Positions 755 through 26,268 of a stretch of DNA of 58,751 nucleotides are shown in pieces; positions within the stretch are counted from its first letter, which is position 1, and each line of letters begins with the position of its first letter. Made by a program: the position numbers and the translations under genes. Location: positions 1 to 58,751 of the IMG/VR virus record IMGVR_UViG_3300030104_001141; one strand, 5' to 3'. Origin of the DNA: a virus (taxonomy: Duplodnaviria > Caudoviricetes). The notes below the pieces were generated by a model. The model saw only the letters and a program-made list of their open reading frames with translations, did not search any database and had not been told where the DNA came from.

Positions 755-1234
755 TTATTTATTATCAGTTGCAAAGAGTTCATGTATTTTCTGTTCCAGT
801 TCCAGTTTAATCTCATCACTGGTCTTGTTACTGCTAGTTGTCTCAACCCTATCAGTAAAGAGTGCCACCTCAGATATCTTTCCTATTAACTCAAGGCTAC
901 GAATCCTTGCTGACTCATTGTTGTTAATATCCTTTGCTTCTTTGATTAACTGGTCTGTAACAAACTGTCTTAGAGAGAGTGATGTACTAACTGAATACTG
1001 CTCTTTTCTCTTGAACCCTGCCTTGACCCTTTGGGAAACCTTAGGGTGGCTCATAAGGACACTAGCTTCTCTCCAAACGCTACTATCTTTCATGTTCTTT
1101 GTGTTGTATGAATTGCGATATGATTCACTAGCAGTCATACCTGATAATACACCTTGTACAAACTTCTCTTGCTTAGGTGTTAATCCATCTATATTAGTTA
1201 CCTTGTTCTTGTCCTTGTCTTTGATTTTGCTCAT
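755..1234 (-). CDS. terS: Terminase small subunit
   Basis: LTPKQEKFV...YRNSY...ASVLM.HPKV..R N-terminal HTH and 'RSLELIGK...LFTDRVE' are typical of TerS; lies upstream of terL on the circle. Confidence 0.75.
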   Translation of the reverse strand: MSKIKDKDKNKVTNIDGLTPKQEKFVQGVLSGMTASESYRNSYNTKNMKDSSVWREASVLMSHPKVSQRVKAGFKRKEQYSVSTSLSLRQFVTDQLIKEAKDINNNESARIRSLELIGKISEVALFTDRVETTSSNKTSDEIKLELEQKIHELFATDNK

Positions 1235-1258: not shown

Positions 1259-1392
1259 TTTGATTTAATTTATATGGATGACTTCCTATGTCATCTATGC
1301 CTAAACCCCTTTATACGCTTACTTCGTAAGCAACACAAGTTCCGGAATGAACATAAGGCGTAAAGAAATATCATTTTATTTATCACAAACAC

Positions 1393-1423
1393 TTGCAATT
1401 GTGGGGTAATCCATGTTTATAAT
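1393..1423 (+). promoter_or_regulatory. Putative sigma70 early promoter
   Basis: TTGCAA (1393-1398), 19-nt spacer, TATAAT (1418-1423); the spacer is longer than optimal. Confidence 0.5.
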
Positions 1424-1429
1424 ACCCTG

Positions 1430-1868
1430 TCGTTTGGGATTGTCGTTGAAAAACCCCTTTCCAAACACGCCCTAGTGGGACACTCATTGTCCCCATGAGA
1501 GCCGGTCGCAAGGACTTGGTTCGAGGGTTCAAGCCTAGAGCCTGAATCGACACATGGGACATAATCGAGAAGAGGTAACCTGAAAATCCTCACCACGAAA
1601 AATCCGGACTTCATGTTTTTGAGAGTTTATTCAGGGTTGAGAGAGTGTTGTCTCATTGAGAACGATTCTGTCCATTAGCGAATGTCCTAGCAAGACTAAA
1701 GGTTTGGGTGGTTTCCGGAGAGTTGAGATTCCCACAGAACACAAAACTCAAGAATATCAATATGTGCTAAGGCTATGCTGGTGATGAACCGGTGTGTAAC
1801 TTGCTTGTCTCTAGGGACTAAACTTGTGAGTGTGTAAAGTAGCTAATCCCAAAGTGATAAGTCTAGGT
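1430..1868 (+). ncRNA. Putative large structured ncRNA, class unassigned
   Basis: GC-rich and without a credible ORF; 1433-1442 pairs with 1844-1853; GCAA tetraloop hairpin 1499-1522; further helices. Confidence 0.65.
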
Positions 1869-1895
1869 AATAATTTAATTTTATGGAGAAAATTT

Positions 1896-2177
1896 ATGAA
1901 TAAAATAAAAGCATTGTTGAGTTTGGTTGAATGTGAGATGAAAAGATATTATGACCCCTTTTGGAGTGATGGTAAGGATGTAATCCTTGATGATATCGCC
2001 AGTATTTTGGAGATAGCATCATTACTTTCTAGTGCCAAAGTTAGCAAGAAAGCGTTGAAATCGCATTTCAATACGCTTGATACTGAATTGAGAGACACGA
2101 TTTCATGTTTCTTAAAAAATGAAGATAACATTCATCAAGCCATGTATGAGTGTGGATATATCGTTATTTCTGAATAA
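1896..2177 (+). CDS. Hypothetical early protein
   Basis: GGAG SD before ATG 1896; leader identical to that of the 2270 gene. Confidence 0.8.
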   Translation: MNKIKALLSLVECEMKRYYDPFWSDGKDVILDDIASILEIASLLSSAKVSKKALKSHFNTLDTELRDTISCFLKNEDNIHQAMYECGYIVISE

Positions 2178-2242
2178 ACCTACTGATGAGCAACACTGAA
2201 AGGTGGCGAAACTTAAGGCTCTTTTGAGCCTTTTGTTTAGGT
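2178..2242 (+). ncRNA. Hammerhead ribozyme 1 (type I), predicted cleavage GUU after 2237
   Basis: Stem I ACCTA/TAGGT; CTGATGA 2183-2189; stem II with GAAA loop; GAAAC 2208-2212; stem III AAGGCTC/GAGCCTT; distal stem GTTATT/AATAAT. Confidence 0.9.
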
Positions 2243-2269
2243 AATAATTTAATTTTATGGAGAAAATTT

Positions 2270-2593
2270 ATGAAAGCAGAAAAAATAATTGAGCATATCA
2301 CTAAATCTTTTAACAAATATCTTGATGAAAGTGGGATGGAAGAACTTATTCCAAACCATAAAAAAGATGCTTGGAAAGATTTGATTATTAGAGAATCTGA
2401 AGAAGAAAATGAAGTGGTTGAGATACTATATGATGGTGGCTACTGTTACGACATGATTAACGAAACATGGGATGAGTGTGGTGGATATACAAACTGGGAA
2501 ACTGCTGAAATGCTATTTGGTTTGAAATCCTTAGAGAAAAAAGGACATGAAGCTGAACCTTATGCATCATGGAAAATATCTGTTTATGCTTGA
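2270..2593 (+). CDS. Hypothetical acidic early protein
   Basis: ORF with GGAG SD, bracketed by hammerheads 1 and 2. Confidence 0.8.
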   Translation: MKAEKIIEHITKSFNKYLDESGMEELIPNHKKDAWKDLIIRESEEENEVVEILYDGGYCYDMINETWDECGGYTNWETAEMLFGLKSLEKKGHEAEPYASWKISVYA

Positions 2594-2597
2594 TAAA

Positions 2598-2662
2598 ACC
2601 TACTGATGAGCAACACTGAAAGGTGGCGAAACTTGGGACTTTCCGGAGTCCCAATTCTAGGT
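2598..2662 (+). ncRNA. Hammerhead ribozyme 2 (type I), predicted cleavage UUC after 2657
   Basis: 39 nt identical to HHR1 (2596-2634 = 2176-2214); different stem III TTGGGACTT/GAGTCCCAA with UCCG loop; distal stem TGTTTAT/ATAAACA. Confidence 0.9.
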
Positions 2663-2697
2663 AATAAACATTAACCAATTAATAGATAGGAGAAAAT

Positions 2698-2886
2698 ATG
2701 AATAAACCTGAAGCAAATAAACTTTACGCCTTAACTGGTGGGACTGGAGAGCCTTGTATTGCAAATGGCAACACTTGGGCAGAAAGTGAAGTTAAACCTA
2801 AATGTAATCGCTGTGGTGTTGTTGTCTTTCCTGAAGATGATAACTGTTGTGATAGATGTTTAGAATTGTCTTTTAACGAGGAGTAA
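2698..2886 (+). CDS. Small Cys-rich (Zn-finger-like) protein
   Basis: CNRC...CCDRC; AGGAG SD. Confidence 0.7.
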   Translation: MNKPEANKLYALTGGTGEPCIANGNTWAESEVKPKCNRCGVVVFPEDDNCCDRCLELSFNEE

Positions 2887-2888
2887 AT

Positions 2889-3077
2889 ATGACAGAATTT
2901 AATCAAGAAAAATACCTGAAAAAATGCTTGAAAGAAGCAAGAGGAAAATTAGCGTATGCAGTTATGAATGATATGTCTGATGTTGTAATTGAGAGTTGTG
3001 AAGATTCTTGTAAAAGACTTGCTACAGCATTAGAAGATGTTAGATACGAAAAAAAATATGGGAGTGATTATGAATGA
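2889..3077 (+). CDS. Hypothetical protein
   Basis: GAGGAG SD; tight operon packing. Confidence 0.7.
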   Translation: MTEFNQEKYLKKCLKEARGKLAYAVMNDMSDVVIESCEDSCKRLATALEDVRYEKKYGSDYE

Positions 3078-3228
3078 ACCTGAAGCAAATAACGAATCAG
3101 TAAAAATAACCTGTGAAGAATGTTATGGAAGTGGCGTATCAAGAACTATTAATGGAGATATGGGAGTTGATAATTGTTGGTGTTGTGATGGATATGGATA
3201 TTATAGAGAATATTACACTAAGGAGTGA
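3070..3228 (+). CDS. Small DnaJ-type Zn-finger-like protein
   Basis: CEECYGSG...CWCCDGYG; GGAG SD before ATG 3070. Confidence 0.7.
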   Translation: MNEPEANNESVKITCEECYGSGVSRTINGDMGVDNCWCCDGYGYYREYYTKE

Positions 3229-3230
3229 TT

Positions 3231-3359
3231 ATGAATAAATCAAAAAGAAAAGTGGTGGTAAATAAAAAAGATAAATTGATATCTATGAAAATTTACAAGC
3301 CAAAAGTAAAAAAGAAAACAGCATTTCAAGTAGCTTTTGAAAATGCTAAGGGTGTATAG
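3231..3359 (+). CDS. Small basic protein (42 aa, not in the ORF track)
   Basis: AGGAG SD; MNKSKRKVVV...FENAKGV*. Confidence 0.55.
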   Translation: MNKSKRKVVVNKKDKLISMKIYKPKVKKKTAFQVAFENAKGV

Positions 3360-3412
3360 GTAAATTTACCAGTGGTTTGGCTAGTACCACATACCTTAAA
3401 ACTAGCCATCTA
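3349..3412 (+). ncRNA. Pseudoknot element PK1
   Basis: GTGGT/ACCAC hairpin whose loop TGGCTAGT (3378-3385) pairs with ACTAGCCA (3401-3408); outer stem AGGGTGT/ATACCTT. Confidence 0.65.
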
Positions 3413-3416
3413 ATTT

Positions 3417-3471
3417 TGACTATCGTATAGGAATAGTACCTATGCCTGAATGAGTAACTGCGAAATAGTCA
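3417..3471 (+). ncRNA. Hammerhead ribozyme 3 (type III, core variant CUGAAUGA), predicted cleavage AUC after 3424
   Basis: Stem III TGACTAT/ATAGTCA; stem I GTATAGG/CCTATGC; CTGAATGA 3446-3453; short stem II; GAAA 3462-3465. Confidence 0.8.
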
Positions 3472-3504
3472 TTTCAGTTTTATTAATCGCAAAATGGAGT
3501 AAAT

Positions 3505-4488
3505 ATGAAAGCGAAACAATTAGAAAAATCACTTTCGACTCTAATATCTATCAAGCAACCATCATTTATTTGGGGTGGCGTTGGTATTGGTAAATCAGAA
3601 ATTATCCACAAAGTTGGAGAATCTTTGGGTTATCAAATAAGAGATGTTAGGGTTTCACTACTTGACCCTGTGGACTTAAGGGGTATTCCTAGCGTAGAAA
3701 ATGGAACTACTGTTTGGAATCCACCTGTCTTTTTACCTACTGAAGATGAGCCAAAAACATTACTATTCCTAGATGAGTTACCTCATGGGAGTCCTAGTGT
3801 TCAAAATGCATTATTTCAGTTAGTTAAAGATAGGCAATTGGGTGAGTATAAATTACCTGATTCGACAGTCATTGTCAGTGCTGGTAATAGGTTACAAGAT
3901 AAAGCCGGTGCGAATAGGGTTAATACAGCATTGGGAGATAGATTTATTCATTTAGATTTTGAACCTTGTCCTGATGAGTGGATTGCATGGGCAAAATCAA
4001 GTGGAAAGATTATGCCTGAAATCATAGCGTATATGAGATATAGACCGGAGAATTTATTTGTATTTGATAAAAATGCAAGAGTAAATACTACGCCTAGAAG
4101 TTGGGAATATGCTTCAAGGATTATGTCTGAATGTCCTGATTCTGATATTGAGCATGAGTTACTTTCCGGAACTATTGGAGAGGGTGTGAGTGCTGAATTG
4201 ATAGGTTTCTTGAGAACTGTTAGAGGTTTACCATCACTTGATAAAATCTTGAATGACCCTGAGAGCCTTGATACTGAATCTGACCCTGCGATTCTTTATG
4301 CGATTACAAGCATAATTGCTAGGAAGATGGATAAGACAAACATTGATAAGTTTGTAAAATACTTGGACACATTACCTGATGAGTTCGCTATTTTATGTAT
4401 GACTGATGCAGTGGAATCGAATCCTGACATTAGAAAAACCAAAGCGTTTATTAATTTTGATATCAAGCATCAAGACATTACGCTTTAA
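3505..4488 (+). CDS. MoxR-like AAA+ ATPase
   Basis: Walker A GGVGIGKS, Walker B LLFLDE, AGN sensor, ALGDRF, TPRSW. Confidence 0.9.
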   Translation: MKAKQLEKSLSTLISIKQPSFIWGGVGIGKSEIIHKVGESLGYQIRDVRVSLLDPVDLRGIPSVENGTTVWNPPVFLPTEDEPKTLLFLDELPHGSPSVQNALFQLVKDRQLGEYKLPDSTVIVSAGNRLQDKAGANRVNTALGDRFIHLDFEPCPDEWIAWAKSSGKIMPEIIAYMRYRPENLFVFDKNARVNTTPRSWEYASRIMSECPDSDIEHELLSGTIGEGVSAELIGFLRTVRGLPSLDKILNDPESLDTESDPAILYAITSIIARKMDKTNIDKFVKYLDTLPDEFAILCMTDAVESNPDIRKTKAFINFDIKHQDITL

Positions 4489-4549
4489 ACCGACTGATGA
4501 TTAGTTGAGATGCTATGAAAACATCCCATGTATTTGGGATGTTATTGGT
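4489..4549 (+). ncRNA. Hammerhead ribozyme 4 (type I), predicted cleavage UUA after 4544
   Basis: Stem I ACCGA/TTGGT; CTGATGA 4494-4500; stem II TAGT/GCTA with TGAGAT loop; GAAA; stem III AACATCCCA/TGGGATGTT. Confidence 0.85.
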
Positions 4550-4591
4550 AACAAGTATTAACTGATTAATACTTAAACATGGAGAAATATT

Positions 4592-5467
4592 ATGGCAGTA
4601 GCCCTAAATGAAAAAGCCATGCTCATCAAAGTTGAACTCAAGAAATGGGGTGGAACTAAAACTGATAAATCCTTATCAGAAAAAATTGGATATGATTCTA
4701 ATACTGATGCAAGTTTGTATTCAGTATCAAAGAAACTAACCAATTCCACCACGCTGAAAGAGATTAAAAAAATTGATGGATTGATAAGAACTGACTGCAT
4801 CTATTCCGGTGCTGGTTATAGAGGTTTTTGTCATGCATGGGATAATAATGGAAACTATCTATTACCTATTGATGCAAAAGATAGGTTTGAGAAAAGGTTT
4901 TCATCTTATAGAGATGATAGAGAGAAATTGGTAAAACAATTTGTTTCTGAATATCCGGATATCATCAAAGATGCACAAAGAGAATTTGGTGCAAATTTCA
5001 AAGCAGATGATTTTCCACATGAAACTGAAATTGGCGAATGTTTTTCTTGCGAAGTAATCAAGAATGTAGTTCCCTCTACTGATGATATTAGAATTAATTT
5101 ATCAAAAGATGAGATTGATGAACTAAAAGCAAATGCCAAAAAGCAAGAAAATGAAAGAGTAGAAAAGATTACTTCAGATGTTGTTGATAAAATGACTGGA
5201 GTTCTTGGACATCTTGCAGAAAGAATCAATGATGGTGAGACCTTTAGAGATTCTACACTTGATAAGGTTATTGATTTGTGCGAAACAATACCGGCATTGA
5301 ATGTTGGTGGTGATGCAAAAATTCATAAGGCTCATCAAGACTTGATGGACATATTTGCCGGTAATGATATTACTGCTGAATCATTAAGAGATGATAAAGA
5401 CAAGGCTAAAGAAATTGCTAAAAAGTCTGAGGAAATCATTGATGATTTAGAGGGATGGTTAGACTAA
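4592..5467 (+). CDS. DUF3150-like protein of the AAA/vWA cluster
   Basis: Helical protein between the AAA ATPase and vWA genes; family assignment from recall and context. Confidence 0.5.
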   Translation: MAVALNEKAMLIKVELKKWGGTKTDKSLSEKIGYDSNTDASLYSVSKKLTNSTTLKEIKKIDGLIRTDCIYSGAGYRGFCHAWDNNGNYLLPIDAKDRFEKRFSSYRDDREKLVKQFVSEYPDIIKDAQREFGANFKADDFPHETEIGECFSCEVIKNVVPSTDDIRINLSKDEIDELKANAKKQENERVEKITSDVVDKMTGVLGHLAERINDGETFRDSTLDKVIDLCETIPALNVGGDAKIHKAHQDLMDIFAGNDITAESLRDDKDKAKEIAKKSEEIIDDLEGWLD

Positions 5468-6573
5468 TGATAATACAAGAAATGACTAAAGCTAGAACTG
5501 AACTTATTATCAAACATCCTTTTTTTGGCAAACTTGCTTTAGGTATGAAAATCGTTGAAAGAGATGATATTGATACAATGGCAGTAGATGGTACTCACCT
5601 GTTCTATAACAAAGAATGGGTGTTAGGTATCACTCATCAAGAAAGAGTTGGTGTAATTGCTCACGAAGTCTTACACATTGTTTTCAAGCATCACTTGAGG
5701 AGAAAAGATAGGTGTCCACATTACTGGAATATTGCCGGTGATTATGTAATCAATGCTATTTTGTTTGAGCATGGATTTATACTACCTGATGGTGGTTTGT
5801 TTGATACAAAGTATGCTAAATGGAAAACTGAATCTGTCTACAAAGAAGTCTTTAAAAATAAAGAGCATGATGATGTCCAAACAGTTGGAGAAGTTATTGA
5901 TGCTACTGGTGAAGATGGTAAAGAACTTACTGAATCAGAACTTCAAGAGATGGAAAAAGAAATCACTGTTCAAGTTTTACAAGCTGAACAAAGTGCTAAA
6001 GGTATGGGTAAAGGTGGAGATGCTACAAAAGGTATGTTAGATATCGTGAAAGAGCAATCTGTTTCTTGGGATGATGTGTTGGCTAACTTAGTGTTGGACA
6101 AAGTAGAAACCAATGATTATAACTTCAATAATGTAAATAGAAGATTTGTACATCAAAATCTTTACTTACCTAGTTGTGAAAAGAAACCTAGTGCAAAAGG
6201 TGTTATTGCTTTAGATATTAGTGGTTCAATCTGTCGTGAAGATATGGCTATGATGCAAGATGCAGTAAACAATATTGTTCCTGTTGCAAACTTCGAGGAA
6301 CTTACAGTTCTTTATTGTGATGATGCAGTTAGGCGTATTGATACTTTTGATGCTAACGAGGAAGTAGAACTTACTTATATGAGTGGGGGTGGTACTGACT
6401 ATGAGCCTGTTATCAAATACATAGACAAAGAACTTGATAATGATATTGCGTTTCTTATCTACCTGACTGATGGATATTGTTATCCATGTAGTGAGCCTGA
6501 CTATCCGGTGATATGGGCAACCACTATGACATCACAATTCTTTAAATTTGGAGATATAGTTGAAGTTGCTTAA
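5467..6573 (+). CDS. Metallopeptidase-vWA protein (DUF2201-like)
   Basis: TMAVDG, HEVLH zincin motif, WNIAGDYVIN, MIDAS DISGS, GGGTD, YLTDG. Confidence 0.85.
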   Translation: MIIQEMTKARTELIIKHPFFGKLALGMKIVERDDIDTMAVDGTHLFYNKEWVLGITHQERVGVIAHEVLHIVFKHHLRRKDRCPHYWNIAGDYVINAILFEHGFILPDGGLFDTKYAKWKTESVYKEVFKNKEHDDVQTVGEVIDATGEDGKELTESELQEMEKEITVQVLQAEQSAKGMGKGGDATKGMLDIVKEQSVSWDDVLANLVLDKVETNDYNFNNVNRRFVHQNLYLPSCEKKPSAKGVIALDISGSICREDMAMMQDAVNNIVPVANFEELTVLYCDDAVRRIDTFDANEEVELTYMSGGGTDYEPVIKYIDKELDNDIAFLIYLTDGYCYPCSEPDYPVIWATTMTSQFFKFGDIVEVA

Positions 6574-6580
6574 CTTCAAG

Positions 6581-6620
6581 TAGGGCAGTTTGCTTGTTCT
6601 GTTTTAAAAACAAGCATCTA
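6581..6620 (+). ncRNA. H-type pseudoknot element PK2
   Basis: AGGGCAG/CTGTTTT stem; loop TGCTTGTT (6591-6598) pairs with AACAAGCA (6609-6616); same layout as PK1. Confidence 0.6.
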
Positions 6621-6647
6621 TTAACCAATTAATACTTAGGAGTGAGT

Positions 6648-6839: not shown

Positions 6840-7008
6840 TATTTATACAAAAGACTACAAAGATATTAAAAGTATTTTTGAGAACTTTTGGAAACAAACA
6901 AACATAAGTAGAAATGAACCTTATATGTATATGTTTTCAAACAAAAAAACCAATAAAGATTACTTTAAACATTCTCTAACAAGAGAATATGTAGAGGTGG
7001 AAAGCTAA
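6829..7008 (+). CDS. Hypothetical protein
   Basis: GGAG SD before ATG 6829. Confidence 0.65.
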   Translation: MKNNIYTKDYKDIKSIFENFWKQTNISRNEPYMYMFSNKKTNKDYFKHSLTREYVEVES

Positions 7009-7679
7009 TGGAAAAACATTACTTAGAACAAGAAGCCGAAAGATATATCAAGGAAAGAGAAGATGAACTTAAATATCCTGTAAAAGATTACAACCAAAAA
7101 AAGGTAACCTTATATCATGGAACATCTACTAAATATCTTGATGATATTTTAAAGCAAGGTATCAAACCTAGATATGAAAAAGAAAGTATTTGGGAAGATA
7201 ATCCTAGTAGACCTGACATGGTTTACTTATCTAGTGCTTATGCAGTTTACTTTTCTCAAGTTGCATCACACAAATTAGGTGGCAAACCTGTAGTATTTGA
7301 AGTAAAAGTAAATACTAAAAGTTTATATCCTGATGAAGATTTTCTTGAGCAAATTACAAGAGTTGACCCTGCATGGAAAGATACTTTGTCTCTTGGCATG
7401 GAAGAAAGAACTGCATGGTTCAAAAAAAATATGCTTGATTACAAGACTGCTTACGCAGATAGTTTAGGTGCGTTAGGTAATGCCTGTCATAAAGGAATTA
7501 TCAAACCTAAAAACATTATCAGATACAGCATCTTAGATGAGTCAAAAATATTAGATTATTCAGACCCAACAATAACTTTAATGAACTATCAAATTTTGGG
7601 TGGCAGATATAGAAAGCTGTCTCAAAAAACTATGTGGGAAGAACCCCTATCTATAAAAACAAGGAGTAAAAATGGATAA
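7008..7679 (+). CDS. ADP-ribosyltransferase-fold protein resembling the Tpt1/KptA NAD-binding lobe
   Basis: TLYHGTS...ILKQGIKP...VYLS...GGKPVVFEV. Confidence 0.65.
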   Translation: MEKHYLEQEAERYIKEREDELKYPVKDYNQKKVTLYHGTSTKYLDDILKQGIKPRYEKESIWEDNPSRPDMVYLSSAYAVYFSQVASHKLGGKPVVFEVKVNTKSLYPDEDFLEQITRVDPAWKDTLSLGMEERTAWFKKNMLDYKTAYADSLGALGNACHKGIIKPKNIIRYSILDESKILDYSDPTITLMNYQILGGRYRKLSQKTMWEEPLSIKTRSKNG

Positions 7680-8113: not shown

Positions 8114-8512
8114 ATGAATAAGATAAAAGAATTTGTTATCGACATATTAGATAGAAACAGATTAACAAAATCAATAATAGTATTTTGTTATGAGTTTTAT
8201 ATTTGGATAATAAAAAGACCCATGTTAGAACATACTGGAATAGATTTTGCTGGTGTTGAAGTGCCTGTAGTAGTTAATGAAAAAGAGTTTAACTTTAGTG
8301 GGCGTTGGATAGCTGACATGGAAATAACAGAAACTAGACCTTTATGGTATAGCTACAATGGTAAAAAAGAAAAAACAATAATTCGTATTCTTGCCAATAA
8401 AGAGATAGGTATTTTTACTATCTATAAACCTAAATGGTATAGAACTTTTTTAAACAAAAAAAATAAATTTAATAAATTATTAAGGAGAATAAATAATGTA
8501 TTTAGTAAATAA
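8114..8512 (+). CDS. Hypothetical protein
   Basis: AAGGAG SD. Confidence 0.65.
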   Translation: MNKIKEFVIDILDRNRLTKSIIVFCYEFYIWIIKRPMLEHTGIDFAGVEVPVVVNEKEFNFSGRWIADMEITETRPLWYSYNGKKEKTIIRILANKEIGIFTIYKPKWYRTFLNKKNKFNKLLRRINNVFSK

Positions 8513-8780
8513 AAATAACGACCTGTTGAATGATGTAAGAGAAAGTATTACTGAAATTTGTAATCATATCTATACAAAGATAGACAGAAAACCAAAGGAT
8601 AATTACGAAACAAAAGAAGAAGATTTACTTTTGTTAAAGTCTTTTAATACTTTTGTAACTATTAATCAGTTAATACTTGATAAGTTACATCCTGAAAGAA
8701 AGCAAATGAACCTGCCAAATCCAAAACATTTTGGTATCTCAAAGCATGGTGAAATTATAGAAGTAGAGGTAACTGCATAA
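8496..8780 (+). CDS. Hypothetical protein
   Basis: AAGGAG SD. Confidence 0.65.
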   Translation: MYLVNKNNDLLNDVRESITEICNHIYTKIDRKPKDNYETKEEDLLLLKSFNTFVTINQLILDKLHPERKQMNLPNPKHFGISKHGEIIEVEVTA

Positions 8781-17853: not shown

Positions 17854-20800
17854 TTAATTTCTTATCCTTAAGTCTGGTTGTAGTTCTTCAATATAAAATT
17901 TTCTGATACCCGAAATATCCATTCCCCGTAGTAAATCATTTTCAATTTCGTCAAGCTCAAGTATCTGGTCTCTTTTTTGATTTGAGCTTAGTTCCTGACT
18001 ATTATTTATGATAGCTTTAGCCTGTCTTATCTCTCCTAGTTGGTCTGATGTTTTCTTAAGGTCTTTTTGTAATCCTTGCAGTGCTTCCTTGTATTCTATT
18101 TTATATTCTTTAGTCATGCCCAAAGCACCCATATCTCCCTCATCAAGTATTTTCTTTTCTAATACTCTAAAACTTTCTACTTGATTGTCCACCATCTCTT
18201 TTAAATCAAAGAATTGATTTTCCAATCTATTACCCTCTGTTGGTAGTAAAAAAGCACCCACGACTGGAAGCTGGTCGACACGCATTGATGCACTCTTAGC
18301 TTCATTTGGACCTTTAGTAATTAAAGAATCTACAAATGTCATAGCATATGTACCTGCCGTACCTGTATAACCTGATACTAAATTTTCTATATATAAAGGA
18401 CTAATATTTAATTCGTCACCTACTTTTTTATACAATGTATCTGTACTAGGTCTGTATGCTAAATCTCCTATGTCATCTAAATACTCAGGTACTATTTTTC
18501 TACCTGTATAAAAATCATAATTAAAATAGTTTTCAACTAATGGTTGTATAGCTGTCATTTCTAATGGATTAATTTTTAAAGTATTAGTAATATTTCTTAC
18601 CATACTTTCACGCAAATCTTTTTGTGTATCGTCACCAAAAGTTTTAGCTAACAATCTCATTGGTACAGTTGTAGTTAAGAATCCTGCTTCAAATGGTAAT
18701 GGTATTCCTAAAGGTGAACCTGCTAGTTCTTTACTTCCCGGAATAATAATATAGTTATCTTTAGTTTCTTCTGATGCTTCTTCCCATTCTTCTGAATCTC
18801 TTACTAATAAATAGTAGTAAGGCATTAAAGATATATAAGATAACATTCTTAAAGCAACTGCTGCTGCTCTTTTTCTACGAGTTAATCCTCTACCTATTCC
18901 ATACTTACCTGTAAGTCCTCTATAGAAAACATCAACACCTTGTAGTCTAGGATTTAAAAACATAGTTGATTGTGTAACAAGTTGAAACGATTTGTTATTG
19001 CCACGCCTTGTAAAGTTAAGAACTTCCATAGCTTGTGATAGAGCTTCTGCTACATCTCCTGTTCTTTTTAATGTATCTTTATATACAGATACTCTTGTTG
19101 CCGCATCAGTTATAGCAGTACCTTGACCTAATATATCCCATACTTTTGTAATGATATCAAGAGGTGCTGTTGCTACTTTAGATAGTGTAGTTTTTTCTTT
19201 ATATCTTTCTTTCTTATATGCATTTTCAACAAGAGTTTGTGTGCTATCAATGTCTCTAACACCTCTTTCATAGCCTTGAATAATACCTGCATTTCTTAAA
19301 GCAACATATTCTTCTGGCAAGTTACCTGTCATCATTCCATATGTTATTTTTGCACTTTCTTTAAGCTGACTTAATATTGGCACATAATTAGCTCCACTTA
19401 AAAACCAAGCAGACATACTATCTCTTACTACTTGTCTAAACCAGAAGTCAGGCATTCTGGTTATAAGGTCACTAACCATTCTTTTACTTCCTCGCATTAC
19501 ACTCATTAGCATATTAGTTGGAAGAAAATCTCCACCTGTCATAACAGTAAATAAATTATAATTATCTGGGTCATCAACACTAAATGATTTAGTTTTACCT
19601 TTAACTTTTATCTTAACTATATTAGGTCCAGCAGTATTATTTTTAACTTGTTCTGCTGCTTTAATTATAACTAAGTTACGCATAGTTCTATTAGCTGCTA
19701 CATTTTTCATACCAGCATTAATAGCTGCTCTTGCGTTGTTTGTTATACCTGTTATTGGGTCGACAATATTTTTTTCTTCACTACCTTTAGCTCTTTTAAA
19801 AGGAGATAGTTGCATACCTTGAAATATTTGTGGTCCTTTAAATCCTTCTTCACCTTCCATTGCTCTATAAAATGGAATGTAATCTGAATGTTCCATCCAA
19901 ACATTCCCAGTCTTTTCATCAAGAACTCCTGTGTCTATAAGGAATCTAACTAAATGACGATTCCAACGCTGGTAATCATCAATCATTGTTTGTATTTCAG
20001 GATGTTCTTGTAAAGCAATTACTGCATCTTTCTTATCTTTTGCATTTATCTTTACTTTTCTACCTTCATTATTAAATCTAGTTTCTCTTTTTACTGCAAG
20101 TACAGCTTGAAATGCCCACATCATTTGAGGATTGTTATAAGCATTTTTAAATATTTCGTGTGGTGCTTTAATTGGTTTACCATCTTCAGGAGATATATCT
20201 ACTACTGTAGTAAATCCTTTCTTTGTATTATATACAGGTACACCATGCATAAAAGCTTGTTGATATATGTCTCCTGACCTATCTGAATGATACATTGCTG
20301 CTGCTGCTGAAAGAGATGCAGATAAAAACTTTTGTCCTTGTTCTGTTTTTCTACCGGCAGAATAATCTGTTTCTGCAATTCTTGCATACTGGTCTAGTAT
20401 TGCTTCTCTAAATTTTAATGGGTCAACAGATTTAAAAGACTTTAATACTTTACTAGAAATAGTTTCATTATCAGGAAGTAAATCTCTGATAGTCATTTTC
20501 TTTACTAATCTTTCTGTGGCTGGTTTAAGTGGCTTACCACTTTTCTTAAATGAGTATTTAAGTTTTGTATTATTATCTATACCATCAATAATAGAATCAA
20601 CATCTAAGTTTATTGTACTAGCATTTTTAATATCTTTCTGTGCATTGATTGCTGAAAGCTTTGCTTCAGGTGAAGCGTTATCACTAATTACAGGAGTGAC
20701 TCCTGCCTTTATTGATTTTTGTTTTTGGAGTTCGACTTCTGTTTCTGCTTCTTCAATTGCACTCGCAAGGTCGGACCGTTCTGCATAACTTCTTCGAACA

Positions 20801-23800
20801 TCTCCGATTCCAATTTGTCTAGGCTCTCCATACTCTTGTAGTAATTTACTGGGGTCTTCTTCAACTGTCTGTTCTCCTTTTGCAAAGTTATTATTTAAGA
20901 AGGCATAGTTATCTATCAAACCAGAATCCTTCAATCTATTGTAAGTATCTCTTGGAGTATTTTCAACATCAAGAAAATAATCTGTAGCTATAAGTCTACC
21001 TGTATCTACAAATCTATTCATCATTCTAACTAAAGCATGATTAAAGTCTGTATCAATTAATATAACATCTACACTATAACCTTTTGATTTTAACATAGAA
21101 ATTTTCTTTTCCATGCTTCCATATTTAGAACTACCACCAACAGAAGGTATAATTATATTAGCACCAAGATTTGTTATATTATCCATAACAGAAGCTGCAT
21201 ACTTACTTGACATTGGTGCTGTAGCATTAGCACCTAATCCACCTTTAAATTCAGGCATCATTTTTTTAGCATCATCTGAATCTATTATTGCTGATTTAGT
21301 TTTTTTTGCTAATTGTTCTGCAAAATAAGACTTGCCAGAAGCAGGTAATCCAATTAAGAAAGTAGCTTTTTTATCAACAGATAAAATATCTTCTGCATAA
21401 GCTTCAGCTATTTCTATTAAATCATGTACAAATTTTGGTTTTAGTTTTCCTTCTACTGTTGGTTGACTAAACATTATTCTTTCAGCTTCAATTAACGCAG
21501 GATGTTTTAATATATTACTTAATTGTTTTTGTGTAATGTTTCCTAGATTTATTTTAGATAATTGAAATCTTAAATCATTTAATGCATGAGTATATTCTCT
21601 GTCTGTCATTCCTCTAACAGTTCCATCTTCTTTAGTTAATGGAGCAACATCTCCACCAAGTCCAAGAGTTGGAGACATCATTAGACTAACTGTTTTTTCT
21701 GTTAACTCATCATCAAATTGTTTTATACTTTTTTGACCAATTCTTTTTTCATCTGCAATTCTATCTTTAATAGATTTTAATTCTATTGGTCCTAGTCTTT
21801 CTAACTTAGATGGTATTAAATCATTTACATTAACTAATAGTTCTTGTTCATATTGTCTTGAATAAGTTCTTTCATATGGACTTATTTGTAAATCTTCTTG
21901 TGTATCTTTTGGAGCTAAAGCATTTATGTCTGCTAATACTTTAGACCTAGGTATTAAATATTCTGTTAAAACATCATCATCACTTACTCTATAGCCTGAT
22001 TCAAGACGACCTGCTGCAAAGTCTTCTGCTATTGATTTGTTCATTGTTACAGGAACTACATCATAGTTAGGATTAATTTCTCCGCCTCTATATACAACTA
22101 TAAATTCTGGAAAATATTTCATAGAACTAAAAGTTATATCTTCTATAGCCTGTCTTACTTCATCAATCTTACCCATTCTATATTGAGGCAGACCTAAGTT
22201 ATCTATTATATAATCTTCATCACCTTGTAATATTGCTGCAATAGAATCAGAACCTTGATTATCTATATCTTTTAATATTGCATCAACTAACTGATAATCT
22301 AATCCTGACATTTCTTCAACACCTGTTAGTTCATCTGCAAATCTTTTATATAAATTATCTATTTGAAATTGAGAAGCTCTTATAGTATTTAAAGATTCTG
22401 TTGTCATTCTTCCTTCAGTTCTTTTTAAACTGTACTTAACTCTAGGAGATGATGTGCCTATAACTGGATTAACTTTTTCTGTTGATACAATATTTAAAGG
22501 AATACTTCTTGAGTCTACAGAAAATAATCCTTCTGATTTATATGGATTAGATATATATGGTTTACCAAGATTAAATAATTGAGGATGAAAAAATACAGAA
22601 TACTTAGGCACATTTACTGTAGATAATTTAGATGTATCACCAACAGTATCGTAATTAATATTACCTTGTAGTTGTGCTGTTTTTAAAGCATCTTGTTTAT
22701 TAATATGTAATATTGTTTGTGAGTTTCTTGATGGGTCTCCTACCATATACATAGGTATAGTAGTTACATCTTTACCAAATTGATTTTGCAAAAGCATACT
22801 GCTTAATAATCTAAAATAGTTTTGTGTAAGTTTTACATCATTATTATTATTTAAGTTTGTCTTTCTTCTATTTAATAAATAGTTATCAAATATATCTTGT
22901 TCTTCAAACAAAGCATTTGTTATCTTATTTAGTTTTGTAGAAAATTGTTTTTGTTGTGCTCCAAATAAAAACTCATTTACTAATGGTGACTTAGGTTTAC
23001 CATCTTGATTGGATGAATTTTTAAGAGAAAATTTTAAAGTAGGACTGTCTTGTATATCAGGCAAGTCTTCAACATCTGCTACACCTGCTGTTTGTTTGCC
23101 TCGTTCAAATATGTTTGCAAATTCTGTTTCAGTTCTATCTGTTTCTAATGTAGTTCTTACTACACCTCGTTGCCTGTTAGCTATTTCTCCAGAAGTAACT
23201 CTATTAAATATATCAGTAGCATTTGTAAATCCATTTCCTTTTAAAGAATTGGTTAGACTTGCAAAAAAGTTTTCAACCTTATTAAAAATTTGTTGCGGTT
23301 TACCTGTAACATTTTTTTTATTTTCACCAAATTCTTCAAATCCTAAACCTATAGCTTCTTCTATAATATCTGATTGAGATTCTATTGCAGATAATTCTAA
23401 TGCTTCTGGAGTATTATATGCTCCTTCTGGGTCTGTAATTATTTCAAGATATGTTTTCTTGCTACCTTTAGGCTTTTTTGTTCTAGCAAAATTTGCTAAA
23501 GTATTATATTCATCTTCAGTAAATACATCTGCTTGTCTAAGGGCATGCCAGTTTTCGTGAGTTAATATTCTTGCTAAATTATTTAAATATTTTTTTGGGT
23601 CTTTTTTATATTCAGTTCCGGCTCTATCTATAGGTATAATTATTTCATCAAAAACTTTATTGTATGCACCTTCTAATTCAATATTACCTTTTATATTTCC
23701 TATATAAGGGTCAAACTTAATAGACATTTCTGGATTCTGTTTTTTAAAATCTTCTGCAAAATTATCTAAATCTTCATTAATTTTAATATCTTCTGCAAAT

Positions 23801-26268
23801 TTTATAGAGCCATCAAAATTATATTTTTGACTACCTGTTCCTACCCATTTATTATTTTTTATATAACCAGAAGTAATTAAATCTTCTTTTAATCTTTTAG
23901 CTTCTGAATTATTTAAACCAGTTGCATCTTTAATTATTTTTAATGTAGTTTTTTTAGATTCTTCAATAGCATTTATAGCTTTAGAGTAATCATTTAATGA
24001 ATAACTTCTATGTGTAAAATCAGGTAGAAGTATTAAATCTGTTGATGGTGGTAAGCTTTCTATTACAGAATATAAAACTCTGCGTTGTGCAACACTCATT
24101 TTTTCTACAGAAGATTCACCTGTAAAATGCAAAGCAAGTCTTTTAAATGACTCATCATTTACATCACTATCTATATTTTTATTTTTAAGAACTCGTTTTA
24201 TTGTTGCAGCAGATACGCTGTTGGGTGCACTTGATTCATTAAGCAAAATGTTTTCACTTCTTGCATTCATTACTTTATCAAACTGTGCTTTAGATAAAAT
24301 ATTTTTTAATTGACTTATTGCTACATTAGCTTGATTGCCTGTAGCATCTTGAATTGTTTTTATTATTTCTTGGCTTACACCTATTTCATTTAACTCTTGA
24401 AAGCTAATGCCATCATAATAAGGATTAGAAATTTTTAATCCTAGATTTTGTATTGTAGAATTATTACTATCTAAATTTTGCATTAAGATATAATCGTTAA
24501 CTTTTTCTACAGCATACTGAGTTTGACCTATAAGATTTAAACCACTAGAAACTTGACCAGCTTTTTCTAAAGAATCATATGGTGAAAAGGGTTGATTTGT
24601 TTTTGGATTAATTAATACATTGCCTTGATAATCTGTAATAGAAAATGTGTTATCACCATTATCTTTTACAAGAAATGCATTAGGAGTTTCTGAATTTTCT
24701 GTAACAATTTTACTAGGAAAAGATGTAGGATTTTTAAATTCATCTGTAAAGCTTTTGTAAATTTCAAAGGCTTCACCAAATCCGGGCATGTCATTATTGT
24801 ATTCTTCTATAGTTTCAGAAAAAGCTTTTAAAGGATTCTCTCCACCTTCAATTCTTGCTTCAGATTTTTTGTTAATATCAAAAGCTATTTTTTCTGCTTG
24901 TTCTCCAAAACCTTTTTGTTTCATTTGTTCTAAATAAATTTCAAAAAAGTTTTTACCTAATCTATATTGTGTTTCAGTTTTTAATGCTTGTGATTTTTTT
25001 ACATCTTGAAATCCAGCAGATGCTTGTCCTAGTATTGCTTCAGCAGGAGCAAAGGCAAACTCACCTATTATCTCCATATTTATATCACCAAATCTTAAGG
25101 TTTCACCTTCTTCTAAAGTAAAGTATTGACCAGTAGCTTCACCTGCACCACCTAATGCACCTTGTAATGGTGCTTGAATTAAGGTATTCATTGCTTGTTT
25201 TGCAAATATATTTTGAAATCCAAATGGATTAAAAACTTTAGTAGCCATACCAAAAGATAAAGCATCAAATGTACCTATTGCAGTACCTCTAATTCTTGCA
25301 TATTTTTTTGCTTCAGCTATTAATTCTTTATTACCCATAAACTTAGCAACAGATTGTGGATTGTTTACATCCATTCCTTTCTTTTGCAAGTATTCTATAT
25401 ATGAGTAAGCATTATCTATAGCACCAGATGTAAAACCTGTAGCTGCTGAACCTGCTAGAACATTACCTGTTGCTAATGTTGTTCCTACACCTGCTCCAAG
25501 AGAAGCTAACATAGGAACAAAACTTGTACCCATTACTTCTAATGGTAAACTTAGGTCAAAGTTTTCTGAATAGGGATTTAAAAAAGCAAATGCATCAATA
25601 AGACCTTCTGATTCTGCTAAAGCATTAAAAGCTTTTGAGTGTCCAAGACTTTGTATATATTCATTATTTTCTTTAGTGTCTTGTATATTTTCTTGAACTC
25701 TTTGCTCAAGACCTTTATCTTGTCTTTCTTGTAATAAATCACCAAAAGCTTGAGCCATTGGTGGTACTGAATAAAGGTTTTGAAAACTTATATTTTTTCT
25801 TTTTTTATCTAGTTCTTTTTGTGATTTTCCAGTACCTTTTATATCTAATATTAGTTGTTCTTTGTCTGCTTCTTGTTTAGAAGTTAAAGGTCTTATACCT
25901 TCTAAAGCAATATAGCTATCTAAAAGTTGTTGTTTTTTTAAAAGTTCAGGAGCTGTTGCAGATAGAGCATAAAAGTTTGCAGCATTTTTTGCTTGTTTTG
26001 CACCACCTATAACTTGTTCGACAAACGAAGATTCTCCTTCTGTTTCAGTAAAATTTAAATCTACAGGTATTAAAGACTGCAATACTTTTTGTGTATGACT
26101 AAGTTCATCTGTAGGAATTATTTTAGTTTTAGGTTGAGGTTGAGATTGGAATTGAGGTGTATATGCAGATAAAAATTTTTCTTTTTCTTCAAAATAATTT
26201 TCATCAGTTACATAATCAGGAAGATAATGTTTTAATCCATCATCTGTATATACAATATATTTAGCCAT
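17854..26268 (-). CDS. Giant polyvalent internal virion/ejection protein (zincin motif, zeta-toxin-like kinase, LPD38-like C-terminus)
   Basis: HENWH; GLPASGKS...IDSDDAKK; C-terminal 'IPLPFEAG...ENYFNYDFYTGRKIVP'; last gene of the virion operon. Confidence 0.75.
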   Translation of the reverse strand: MAKYIVYTDDGLKHYLPDYVTDENYFEEKEKFLSAYTPQFQSQPQPKTKIIPTDELSHTQKVLQSLIPVDLNFTETEGESSFVEQVIGGAKQAKNAANFYALSATAPELLKKQQLLDSYIALEGIRPLTSKQEADKEQLILDIKGTGKSQKELDKKRKNISFQNLYSVPPMAQAFGDLLQERQDKGLEQRVQENIQDTKENNEYIQSLGHSKAFNALAESEGLIDAFAFLNPYSENFDLSLPLEVMGTSFVPMLASLGAGVGTTLATGNVLAGSAATGFTSGAIDNAYSYIEYLQKKGMDVNNPQSVAKFMGNKELIAEAKKYARIRGTAIGTFDALSFGMATKVFNPFGFQNIFAKQAMNTLIQAPLQGALGGAGEATGQYFTLEEGETLRFGDINMEIIGEFAFAPAEAILGQASAGFQDVKKSQALKTETQYRLGKNFFEIYLEQMKQKGFGEQAEKIAFDINKKSEARIEGGENPLKAFSETIEEYNNDMPGFGEAFEIYKSFTDEFKNPTSFPSKIVTENSETPNAFLVKDNGDNTFSITDYQGNVLINPKTNQPFSPYDSLEKAGQVSSGLNLIGQTQYAVEKVNDYILMQNLDSNNSTIQNLGLKISNPYYDGISFQELNEIGVSQEIIKTIQDATGNQANVAISQLKNILSKAQFDKVMNARSENILLNESSAPNSVSAATIKRVLKNKNIDSDVNDESFKRLALHFTGESSVEKMSVAQRRVLYSVIESLPPSTDLILLPDFTHRSYSLNDYSKAINAIEESKKTTLKIIKDATGLNNSEAKRLKEDLITSGYIKNNKWVGTGSQKYNFDGSIKFAEDIKINEDLDNFAEDFKKQNPEMSIKFDPYIGNIKGNIELEGAYNKVFDEIIIPIDRAGTEYKKDPKKYLNNLARILTHENWHALRQADVFTEDEYNTLANFARTKKPKGSKKTYLEIITDPEGAYNTPEALELSAIESQSDIIEEAIGLGFEEFGENKKNVTGKPQQIFNKVENFFASLTNSLKGNGFTNATDIFNRVTSGEIANRQRGVVRTTLETDRTETEFANIFERGKQTAGVADVEDLPDIQDSPTLKFSLKNSSNQDGKPKSPLVNEFLFGAQQKQFSTKLNKITNALFEEQDIFDNYLLNRRKTNLNNNNDVKLTQNYFRLLSSMLLQNQFGKDVTTIPMYMVGDPSRNSQTILHINKQDALKTAQLQGNINYDTVGDTSKLSTVNVPKYSVFFHPQLFNLGKPYISNPYKSEGLFSVDSRSIPLNIVSTEKVNPVIGTSSPRVKYSLKRTEGRMTTESLNTIRASQFQIDNLYKRFADELTGVEEMSGLDYQLVDAILKDIDNQGSDSIAAILQGDEDYIIDNLGLPQYRMGKIDEVRQAIEDITFSSMKYFPEFIVVYRGGEINPNYDVVPVTMNKSIAEDFAAGRLESGYRVSDDDVLTEYLIPRSKVLADINALAPKDTQEDLQISPYERTYSRQYEQELLVNVNDLIPSKLERLGPIELKSIKDRIADEKRIGQKSIKQFDDELTEKTVSLMMSPTLGLGGDVAPLTKEDGTVRGMTDREYTHALNDLRFQLSKINLGNITQKQLSNILKHPALIEAERIMFSQPTVEGKLKPKFVHDLIEIAEAYAEDILSVDKKATFLIGLPASGKSYFAEQLAKKTKSAIIDSDDAKKMMPEFKGGLGANATAPMSSKYAASVMDNITNLGANIIIPSVGGSSKYGSMEKKISMLKSKGYSVDVILIDTDFNHALVRMMNRFVDTGRLIATDYFLDVENTPRDTYNRLKDSGLIDNYAFLNNNFAKGEQTVEEDPSKLLQEYGEPRQIGIGDVRRSYAERSDLASAIEEAETEVELQKQKSIKAGVTPVISDNASPEAKLSAINAQKDIKNASTINLDVDSIIDGIDNNTKLKYSFKKSGKPLKPATERLVKKMTIRDLLPDNETISSKVLKSFKSVDPLKFREAILDQYARIAETDYSAGRKTEQGQKFLSASLSAAAAMYHSDRSGDIYQQAFMHGVPVYNTKKGFTTVVDISPEDGKPIKAPHEIFKNAYNNPQMMWAFQAVLAVKRETRFNNEGRKVKINAKDKKDAVIALQEHPEIQTMIDDYQRWNRHLVRFLIDTGVLDEKTGNVWMEHSDYIPFYRAMEGEEGFKGPQIFQGMQLSPFKRAKGSEEKNIVDPITGITNNARAAINAGMKNVAANRTMRNLVIIKAAEQVKNNTAGPNIVKIKVKGKTKSFSVDDPDNYNLFTVMTGGDFLPTNMLMSVMRGSKRMVSDLITRMPDFWFRQVVRDSMSAWFLSGANYVPILSQLKESAKITYGMMTGNLPEEYVALRNAGIIQGYERGVRDIDSTQTLVENAYKKERYKEKTTLSKVATAPLDIITKVWDILGQGTAITDAATRVSVYKDTLKRTGDVAEALSQAMEVLNFTRRGNNKSFQLVTQSTMFLNPRLQGVDVFYRGLTGKYGIGRGLTRRKRAAAVALRMLSYISLMPYYYLLVRDSEEWEEASEETKDNYIIIPGSKELAGSPLGIPLPFEAGFLTTTVPMRLLAKTFGDDTQKDLRESMVRNITNTLKINPLEMTAIQPLVENYFNYDFYTGRKIVPEYLDDIGDLAYRPSTDTLYKKVGDELNISPLYIENLVSGYTGTAGTYAMTFVDSLITKGPNEAKSASMRVDQLPVVGAFLLPTEGNRLENQFFDLKEMVDNQVESFRVLEKKILDEGDMGALGMTKEYKIEYKEALQGLQKDLKKTSDQLGEIRQAKAIINNSQELSSNQKRDQILELDEIENDLLRGMDISGIRKFYIEELQPDLRIRN

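Follow-up and report, generated by a model that had tools for sequence, protein, structure and literature searches.

The DNA analysed here (the window) is a whole virus record of 58,751 bases from an uncultured marine tailed phage. Its plus strand carries a gene block that begins near 1430 and extends some 15 kb, and its minus strand carries the large terminase, portal, structural and tail-fibre genes. The subject of this report is a cluster of four hammerhead ribozymes (HHR1 to HHR4), which lie in the plus-strand block within 2.4 kb, between genes and on the sense strand, together with a structured RNA of about 420 nucleotides (nt) at the head of the same operon (Table 1).

The original prediction had placed four hammerheads between genes of the plus strand, and all four are confirmed at those coordinates, each with a hammerhead core and three stems. 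Descriptor scans put the cleavage nucleotide, H17, at 2237, 2657, 3424 and 4544, which agrees with the new 5' ends predicted at 2238, 2658, 3425 and 4545; the lengths given for the resulting pieces (420, 767 and 1120 nt) are arithmetically right. A15.1-U16.1 followed by a non-G H17 is present in all four elements (GUU, UUC, AUC and UUA). HHR1, HHR2 and HHR4 have the exact core C3 U4 G5 A6 N7 G8 A9 plus G12 A13 A14 and a type I architecture, consisting of a 5-base-pair (bp) open stem I, the 7-nt core, stem II, GAAA, a stem III hairpin and the cleavage nucleotide. HHR4 has a 4-bp stem II and, in the correct register, a perfect 9-bp stem III. HHR3 is of type III, with an open stem III, a 7-bp stem I and a 2-bp stem II; its core of 8 nt contains an extra A after A6 and otherwise matches the consensus, and its loops I and II are complementary over 3 nt only, a possible pseudoknot. 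The G10.1-C11.1 pair that closes stem II is present in HHR1, HHR2 and HHR3 and absent in HHR4.

HHR1 and HHR2 share 39 identical nt, as had been stated (2176-2214 is the same as 2596-2634). The accompanying claim that their distal stem I sequences differ and still pair fares less well: the 5-bp stem I is identical in the two, only a possible distal extension differs, and the pairing of this extension is barely above control. Distal stem I pairing was also considered as a feature of the type I family as a whole and was dropped, since the mean best helix (4.8 bp, compared with 4.3 bp for mismatched partners) shows no real excess over the control.

Table 1. Features at and around the ribozyme cluster, in order of position; R1 is the covariance model of the type I family described in the text, and ORF stands for open reading frame.
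Feature	Position	Strand	Remarks
Small terminase	755-1234	-	
Conserved structured non-coding RNA, ~420 nt	1444-1860	+	Operon head; no long ORF
Leader copy 1	1864-1900	+	Identical by eye to 2238-2274; ends at ORF1 ATG; preceded by GUC
ORF1, 93 amino acids, no family	1896-2177	+	Stop codon directly adjoins HHR1 stem I
HHR1, type I hammerhead	2178-2242	+	Predicted cut after U2237; R1 74.5 bits (seed)
Leader copy 2	2238-2274	+	5' end of predicted HHR1 downstream product, up to ORF2 ATG
ORF2, 107 amino acids, no family	2270-2593	+	
HHR2, type I hammerhead	2598-2662	+	Predicted cut after C2657; R1 75.6 bits (seed)
Four small ORFs (62, 62, 63 and 44 amino acids) between HHR2 and HHR3	2698-3359	+	
HHR3, type III variant	3417-3471	+	Predicted cut after C3424
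MoxR-like AAA+ ATPase	3505-4488	+	Pfam AAA_5, E = 2.2e-7; stop codon adjoins HHR4 stem I
HHR4, type I hammerhead, second subfamily	4489-4549	+	Predicted cut after A4544; R1 64.9 bits (seed)
DUF3150 protein and DUF2201 metallopeptidase/VWA protein, accompanying the ATPase	4592-6573	+	

Hammerhead identity and covariation

A chance origin of the four elements is excluded. The strict type I descriptor gives three matches in the window, all on the same strand and within 2.4 kb; in 200 random windows of the same size it gives 11 matches, and none of these windows holds at least two. The loose type I descriptor yields 1.27 matches per random window (100 random windows), and the descriptor for type III elements with the extra A yields two matches in 200 random windows.

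An exact 30-mer of HHR1 and HHR2 is present in six viral contigs, and a search with a degenerate pattern of stem II found 34 copies in 32 viral contigs and none in 185,579 species genomes. A covariance model, R1, was built from a MAFFT alignment of 12 sequences, with HHR1, HHR2 and HHR4 among the seeds, and gave 44 matches over 36 sources; these represent 36 distinct type I sequences, which come from uncultured viral contigs. U4, G5, A6, A9, G12, A13, A14, A15.1 and U16.1 are invariant in all 36. The core pair 3-8 is C3-G8 in 33 sequences and U3-A8 in three, with no mixed pairs, and N7 takes all four bases (U in 21, C in five, G in six and A in four). H17 is C in 26, A in eight, U in one and G in one, the lone G coming from a misaligned row whose stem III has a long insert. 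Thus, the type I family matches the hammerhead consensus position by position.

The stems covary as well. When the sequences are aligned by fitting to the model, 97.2% of 677 cells are paired, compared with 30-43% when the partners are slid; in the MAFFT alignment of the 12 sequences, which is not fitted to the model, 94.6% are paired, compared with 32-42%, and two-sided change is seen in 12 of 21 pairs. Among related viral contigs or loci (labelled L001, L004 and so on, L001 to L003 being the closest relatives), the homologue of HHR4 in L001-L003 has a wholly different stem III with a large insert that pairs in the same register, and L001 has two more copies of the HHR4 type, three in all, in which stems II and III covary. 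Type I hammerheads with U3-A8 lie at 3779 in L004 and at 3618 and 3910 in L005, and near-identical elements in L029 and L030 retain C3-G8; this contrast is clean natural covariation within the catalytic core. The original prediction had named degenerate cores without stem covariation in homologous loci as the contrary outcome, and the opposite is seen: in the type I family the fixed core positions are invariant and the stems covary.

HHR3 represents a recurrent variant. It is kept in the closest relatives, where its stem I shows one compensatory and one one-sided change. In 210 kb (the window plus related loci), the extra-A type III descriptor locates 15 distinct elements that share the 8-nt core of HHR3; the more distant contigs among the carriers of this core are L004 and L005 (each at two places), L006, L008, L023, L029, L030, L032, L055 and L056. 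Core position 7 is U or C throughout the subtype. Seven elements from four lineages, whose pairs were tabulated by script with no covariance model, the MAFFT alignment of the type III variants being structurally inconsistent, have covarying stems I and III and keep A15.1-U16.1, C17 and G10.1-C11.1. In the type III elements whose stem II is very short, 3-6 nt of loop I are complementary to the loop of stem II, and this complementarity, seen as three different sequence pairs, fits a putative pseudoknot. To judge by this conservation, the extra A after A6 and the U-U pair that closes stem II in HHR4 and its kin are conserved subtypes under selection and not decaying copies.

A further subtype of the extra-A type III hammerhead has two more A between stem II and GAAA and a palindromic 6-nt stem I loop, and occurs at L004 3026, L005 3169, L006 2129, L023 87, L029 603, L030 1271 and L032 1271. 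No mention of this combination was found in the passages of Perreault et al. 2011 (PMC3088659) and of a 2019 review (PMC6765202) on which this report draws, and everything said below about these two sources is limited to those passages.

Layout, leaders and cassettes

The type I elements follow closely on the ends of genes. Of 21 distinct type I elements, 16, among them those of the window, have the stop codon of the preceding gene 0-4 nt ahead of stem I; in the window, 27-42 nt separate stem I from the next start codon. Similar clusters occur in relatives: all five related virus records that were searched whole carry one to four type I copies, and most also carry type III variants, with four type I elements and one type III element in L001, two of each in L005, and two and one, respectively, in L006. 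L001 has two further hammerheads of the HHR4 type (8148-8208 and 8467-8526) after the DUF2201 gene, and the matching place in the window (6574-6640) contains none. Thus, the number of ribozymes differs between near relatives.

It had also been proposed that related phages would show the same layout with different cargo genes, and this is borne out. L001-L003 lack the cassette formed by ORF1 and HHR1, and in L001 a different block of similar length stands in place of the small ORFs (2707-3219). According to blastn synteny, 1-1909 of the window corresponds to 1895-3810 of L001, and 2238-2707 to 3764-4205. The ORF1-HHR1 cassette is flanked precisely by two copies of a 37-nt leader, which contains a match to the 3' strand of stem I, an AU-rich spacer, GGAG and the ATG, and the break in synteny falls within those copies.

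An NUH site, GUC, comes just before leader copy 1, but no ribozyme core can be recognised 5' of it. The probability of an NUH triplet at 1863 by chance is about 0.19, and the three carriers of the triplet are close kin. A hidden hammerhead within 1424-1863 that would cut GUC from UAGGU (between 1863 and 1864) was considered and rejected: the segment gives no R1 match and no canonical core by eye, and the core-like strings in it are not conserved in other clades. Cutting at the same place by the core of HHR1 or HHR2, in trans or over a long range, could involve about 5 bp per arm, yet it was rejected because stem III of a type I element is a closed hairpin that already occupies the strand.

A blastn search of 1300-4700 against deposited phage genomes gave no match, and relatives of the region come only from uncultured viral contigs; four marine metatranscriptome runs contain sequence 90-95% identical to the window. 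The ATPase has tblastn matches to the MoxR-like ATPase of cyanophages and Vibrio phages at about 35% identity. An AT-rich short inverted repeat (TTAAC..TTAATA-like) lies at 2675-2690, 4556-4572 and 6620-6636, about 20-30 nt 5' of start codons. The first two copies follow HHR2 and HHR4, respectively, and the third precedes the gene at 6642; L001 and L004 have the motif as well, and its role could be that of an operator, a promoter element or a leader hairpin. The early region also has, on the plus strand, an ORF at 7008-7679 that weakly matches the PARP/ADP-ribosyltransferase catalytic domain (Pfam E = 4.9e-4, which falls short of the cut-off) and may encode a host-takeover enzyme. On the minus strand, an ORF of 2804 amino acids (17854-26268) has no matches other than PHROGs of unknown function and a weak one to an ATPase family.

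Probable operon self-processing and its alternatives

The core, the covariation, the sense-strand position between genes and the clusters in relatives together make self-processing of the operon the best reading, and it is probable that co-transcriptional self-cleavage at the four hammerheads splits the operon RNA into gene-sized or block-sized mRNAs. The identity of the motifs is established, as are their conservation, covariation, position and strand; cleavage at the four sites, and its extent, are predicted from sequence. The plus-strand operon RNA would start near 1430 and presumably spans all four elements as one transcript, and each motif would fold as the RNA is made. Each would then cut itself by internal transesterification (2237/2238, 2657/2658, 3424/3425 and 4544/4545), so that the upstream piece ends in a 2',3'-cyclic phosphate and the downstream piece begins with a 5'-OH. 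The folded ribozyme would remain on the 3' end of the upstream mRNA at the type I sites, where the downstream mRNA would start with a short standard leader; at the HHR3 site the ribozyme would remain on the 5' end of the ATPase mRNA. From what is known of RNase E, such ends would slow the decay that depends on a 5'-monophosphate, and the 5'-OH may stabilise the RNA pieces. The net effect would be to make the stability and translation of each mRNA independent of its neighbours. Terminating ribosomes could disturb folding, the stop codon adjoining stem I.

Several results weigh against this reading, and the first concerns the curated models. A scan of the whole window at the Rfam gathering scores brought no family to threshold, and the Infernal check proposed with the original prediction failed for its hammerheads, none of the four elements being called at gathering score. 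HHR1 reaches 24.5 bits against Hammerhead_3 (RF00008; gathering score 48.5) with the wrong topology forced on it, although its core and stem II align, and HHR2 reaches 23.4 bits (E = 1.1) against RAGATH-1-hammerhead (RF03152; gathering score 56.3) in the correct type I register; HHR2 fits the type I part of that model, and the upstream hairpin is not convincingly present. HHR3 and HHR4, searched as 101-nt pieces at E values up to 10, give no Rfam hammerhead match. The curated models miss these variants, so membership of the class must rest on the defining hammerhead features. The purpose-built model R1 finds only HHR1, HHR2 and HHR4 in the window (64.9-75.6 bits; next match 15.7 bits), and these scores are dependent, since all three are seeds. 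Likewise, the compensatory change on both sides in 16 of 20 stem pairs was counted on the alignment fitted to the model.

The elements themselves also have imperfections that count on the same side. At the base of stem III, HHR1 contains an internal loop (UU/UU) and HHR2 a C-U mismatch next to the core, and HHR1 also carries the rare U17, the sole H17 = U in the family. HHR4 has a U10.1-U11.1 mismatch at the start of stem II, the best-conserved stem pair, and HHR3 shares the insertion after A6 that gave low activity in one case of Perreault et al. (PMC3088659). The minimum free energy (MFE) fold of HHR2 contains hammerhead stems I, II and III, whereas HHR1, HHR3 and HHR4 have alternative MFE folds, that of HHR4 sequestering the core. 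The energies of the four hammerhead folds exceed the MFE by 1.4-2.8 kcal/mol, a margin that can also be counted in favour of self-processing. The stem III hairpin of HHR1 with the T-run that follows it also scores as terminator-like.

The RNA data consist of assembled contigs from four marine runs of one study, belonging to the relatives 90-95% identical to the window; the libraries may contain DNA, and the leader is a repeat of the sort at which assemblers break contigs. Contigs of the ATPase begin at 3435-3450 in all four runs, 10-25 nt 3' of the HHR3 site, and one contig begins at the first base of the leader; contigs cover the region apart from 3001-3300, and stretches without cover carry no information. 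No contig end falls exactly on a predicted cleavage site, a further point against self-processing, though one from contigs, which cannot resolve RNA ends. For cleavage, the RNA-run contigs amount to weak hints at most and count as support neither way.

The alternative that survives best grants that these are true hammerheads and holds that some of them (HHR3, HHR4 and perhaps HHR1) are slow, conditional or decaying, so that processing is partial or regulated; slow copies could be modulated by ribosomes covering stem I or by an alternative hairpin. The core and stem defects just listed favour it, as do the alternative folds of three of the four elements, the stop codons within 0-4 nt of stem I, the low activity associated with the A6 insertion and the suggestion by Perreault et al. 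(PMC3088659) that slower phage variants are regulated. However, the variants are conserved with covariation in several lineages, contrary to decay, and in the subtype with a short stem II the complementary sequences of loops I and II vary from lineage to lineage, as would be expected of an active tertiary fold. The U-U mismatch at 10.1/11.1, found in HHR4 and its three relatives in L001 (four of the 36 type I sequences), is an allowed exception and no bar to the hammerhead class, because it is reported in natural hammerheads as the best tolerated (PMC3088659). This alternative is on balance unlikely.

Still less probable is that cleavage is followed by ligation into circular or spliced RNAs, or that the ribozyme-plus-leader modules act as boundaries for the exchange of cassettes. 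An excised piece could re-pair with the next ribozyme through a shared stem I, and stem I is indeed identical within a subfamily of one genome (HHR1 and HHR2 in the window, both copies in L040, in L049 and in L011, and three of the four L001 copies); moreover, the ORF1-HHR1 cassette has been gained or lost exactly between its two leaders. Cleavage followed by ligation was raised as a possibility by Perreault et al., but spliced and circular products were sought there and none was found (PMC3088659), and no back-joined or exon-joined contig occurs among the joints of the present RNA runs, for which cover is thin. Recent duplication simply explains both the shared stem I and the 39-nt identity.

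That the elements are non-catalytic hairpin clusters (terminators, RNase sites or mRNA stabilisers) resembling hammerheads by chance is hardly credible, for although the Rfam models fail on them and stem III of HHR1 looks like a terminator, all 36 sequences agree at nine unpaired or junction positions, with N7 free and C3-G8 exchanging with U3-A8, a T-run follows stem III in HHR1 only, and descriptor matches are far above random.

The 1444-1860 RNA and the known systems

The RNA at the operon head aligns with homologues from 15 viral loci in three clades, two pattern matches (L026 and L036) having been removed before alignment as unrelated. RNAalifold gives 72 pairs, 36 of them with compensatory change; the MFE z-score of 0.15 gives no thermodynamic signal. 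The searches found no Rfam match of note, no transfer RNA, no transfer-messenger RNA and no known ribozyme class. All four RNA runs contain it as a discrete contig of 416-441 nt with ends at 1442/1447 and 1858/1860, and in each of them this contig has the highest depth figure of the pieces of the region. No description of this RNA, or of this marine phage family, was found in the literature outside subscription journals. The segment appears to be an undescribed structured phage RNA.

Its 3' context differs between the clades. One clade has a type III hammerhead about 42 nt 3' of the RNA, which would cut it free from the mRNA. The clade of the window has GUC and the standard leader after the RNA, with no ribozyme core found, and the third clade shows no hammerhead by either descriptor scan of its short loci, a ribosome-binding site directly following the RNA. 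The freed RNA would perhaps be a decoy or a host-takeover RNA. A tentative and rather doubtful proposal is that these parts form an early-RNA module, in which an RNA of a new class is joined to hammerheads that free it as a stable non-coding RNA and give every early cassette a standard leader, the ribozyme-plus-leader repeats serving as joints for cassette swaps. The RNA is a less explained and more novel object than the ribozyme cluster.

The original prediction had called the cluster a dedicated self-processing system of an undescribed kind. Hammerhead identity and layout favour the first part; the second does not stand, because clustered phage hammerheads and the processing of a phage transcript into gene-length mRNAs are already in Perreault et al. 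2011 (PMC3088659). According to that study, multiple close hammerheads in prophages often flank single genes or short blocks, long phage transcripts were proposed to be processed into gene-length mRNAs, and three tandem arrangements cleave in vitro and one in vivo. The present cluster likewise has several sense-strand hammerheads within a few kb, flanking genes or blocks of varying identity. Every unusual feature of core or stem in the window elements is also listed there: natural U3-A8 covariation, an insertion following A6 (for which the single case assayed had low activity), stems II shortened to two base pairs or to one, weak stems III, loop-loop pseudoknots and the U10.1-U11.1 mismatch. 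The extra-A variant is a recurrent conserved subtype here and a single case there. The earlier hosts were cultured bacteria with prophages, whereas the present family was found only in uncultured viral contigs. HHphage, which lies 5' of an early helicase gene in haloviruses HF1 and HF2 and whose transcript has a mapped 5' end near the cleavage site (PMC3088659), resembles HHR3 before the ATPase gene; it differs in belonging to an archaeal virus and in its core variant, and the ends in the window phage are predicted ones.

The ribozyme cluster is thus real, and provides new examples of a known arrangement rather than a new kind of system. The early polycistronic mRNA of phage T7 is cut between genes by the RNase III of the host, which leaves a 5'-phosphate and a 3'-OH. 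Here, by contrast, the RNA would cut itself, leaving a 5'-OH and a 2',3'-cyclic phosphate.

The roles of bacterial ribozymes were described in the 2019 review as "largely elusive", with processing of polycistronic RNA listed as a suggestion (PMC6765202). This phage group is a compact natural test case for the role of the hammerhead, in which a single early operon can hold up to five ribozymes, of two topologies and three core variants. Two of its core variants, the extra A after A6 and the U-U closing pair, are both missed by current Rfam models. Its close relatives differ by whole cassettes, and related sequence is present in marine RNA-seq libraries, which may also hold DNA.

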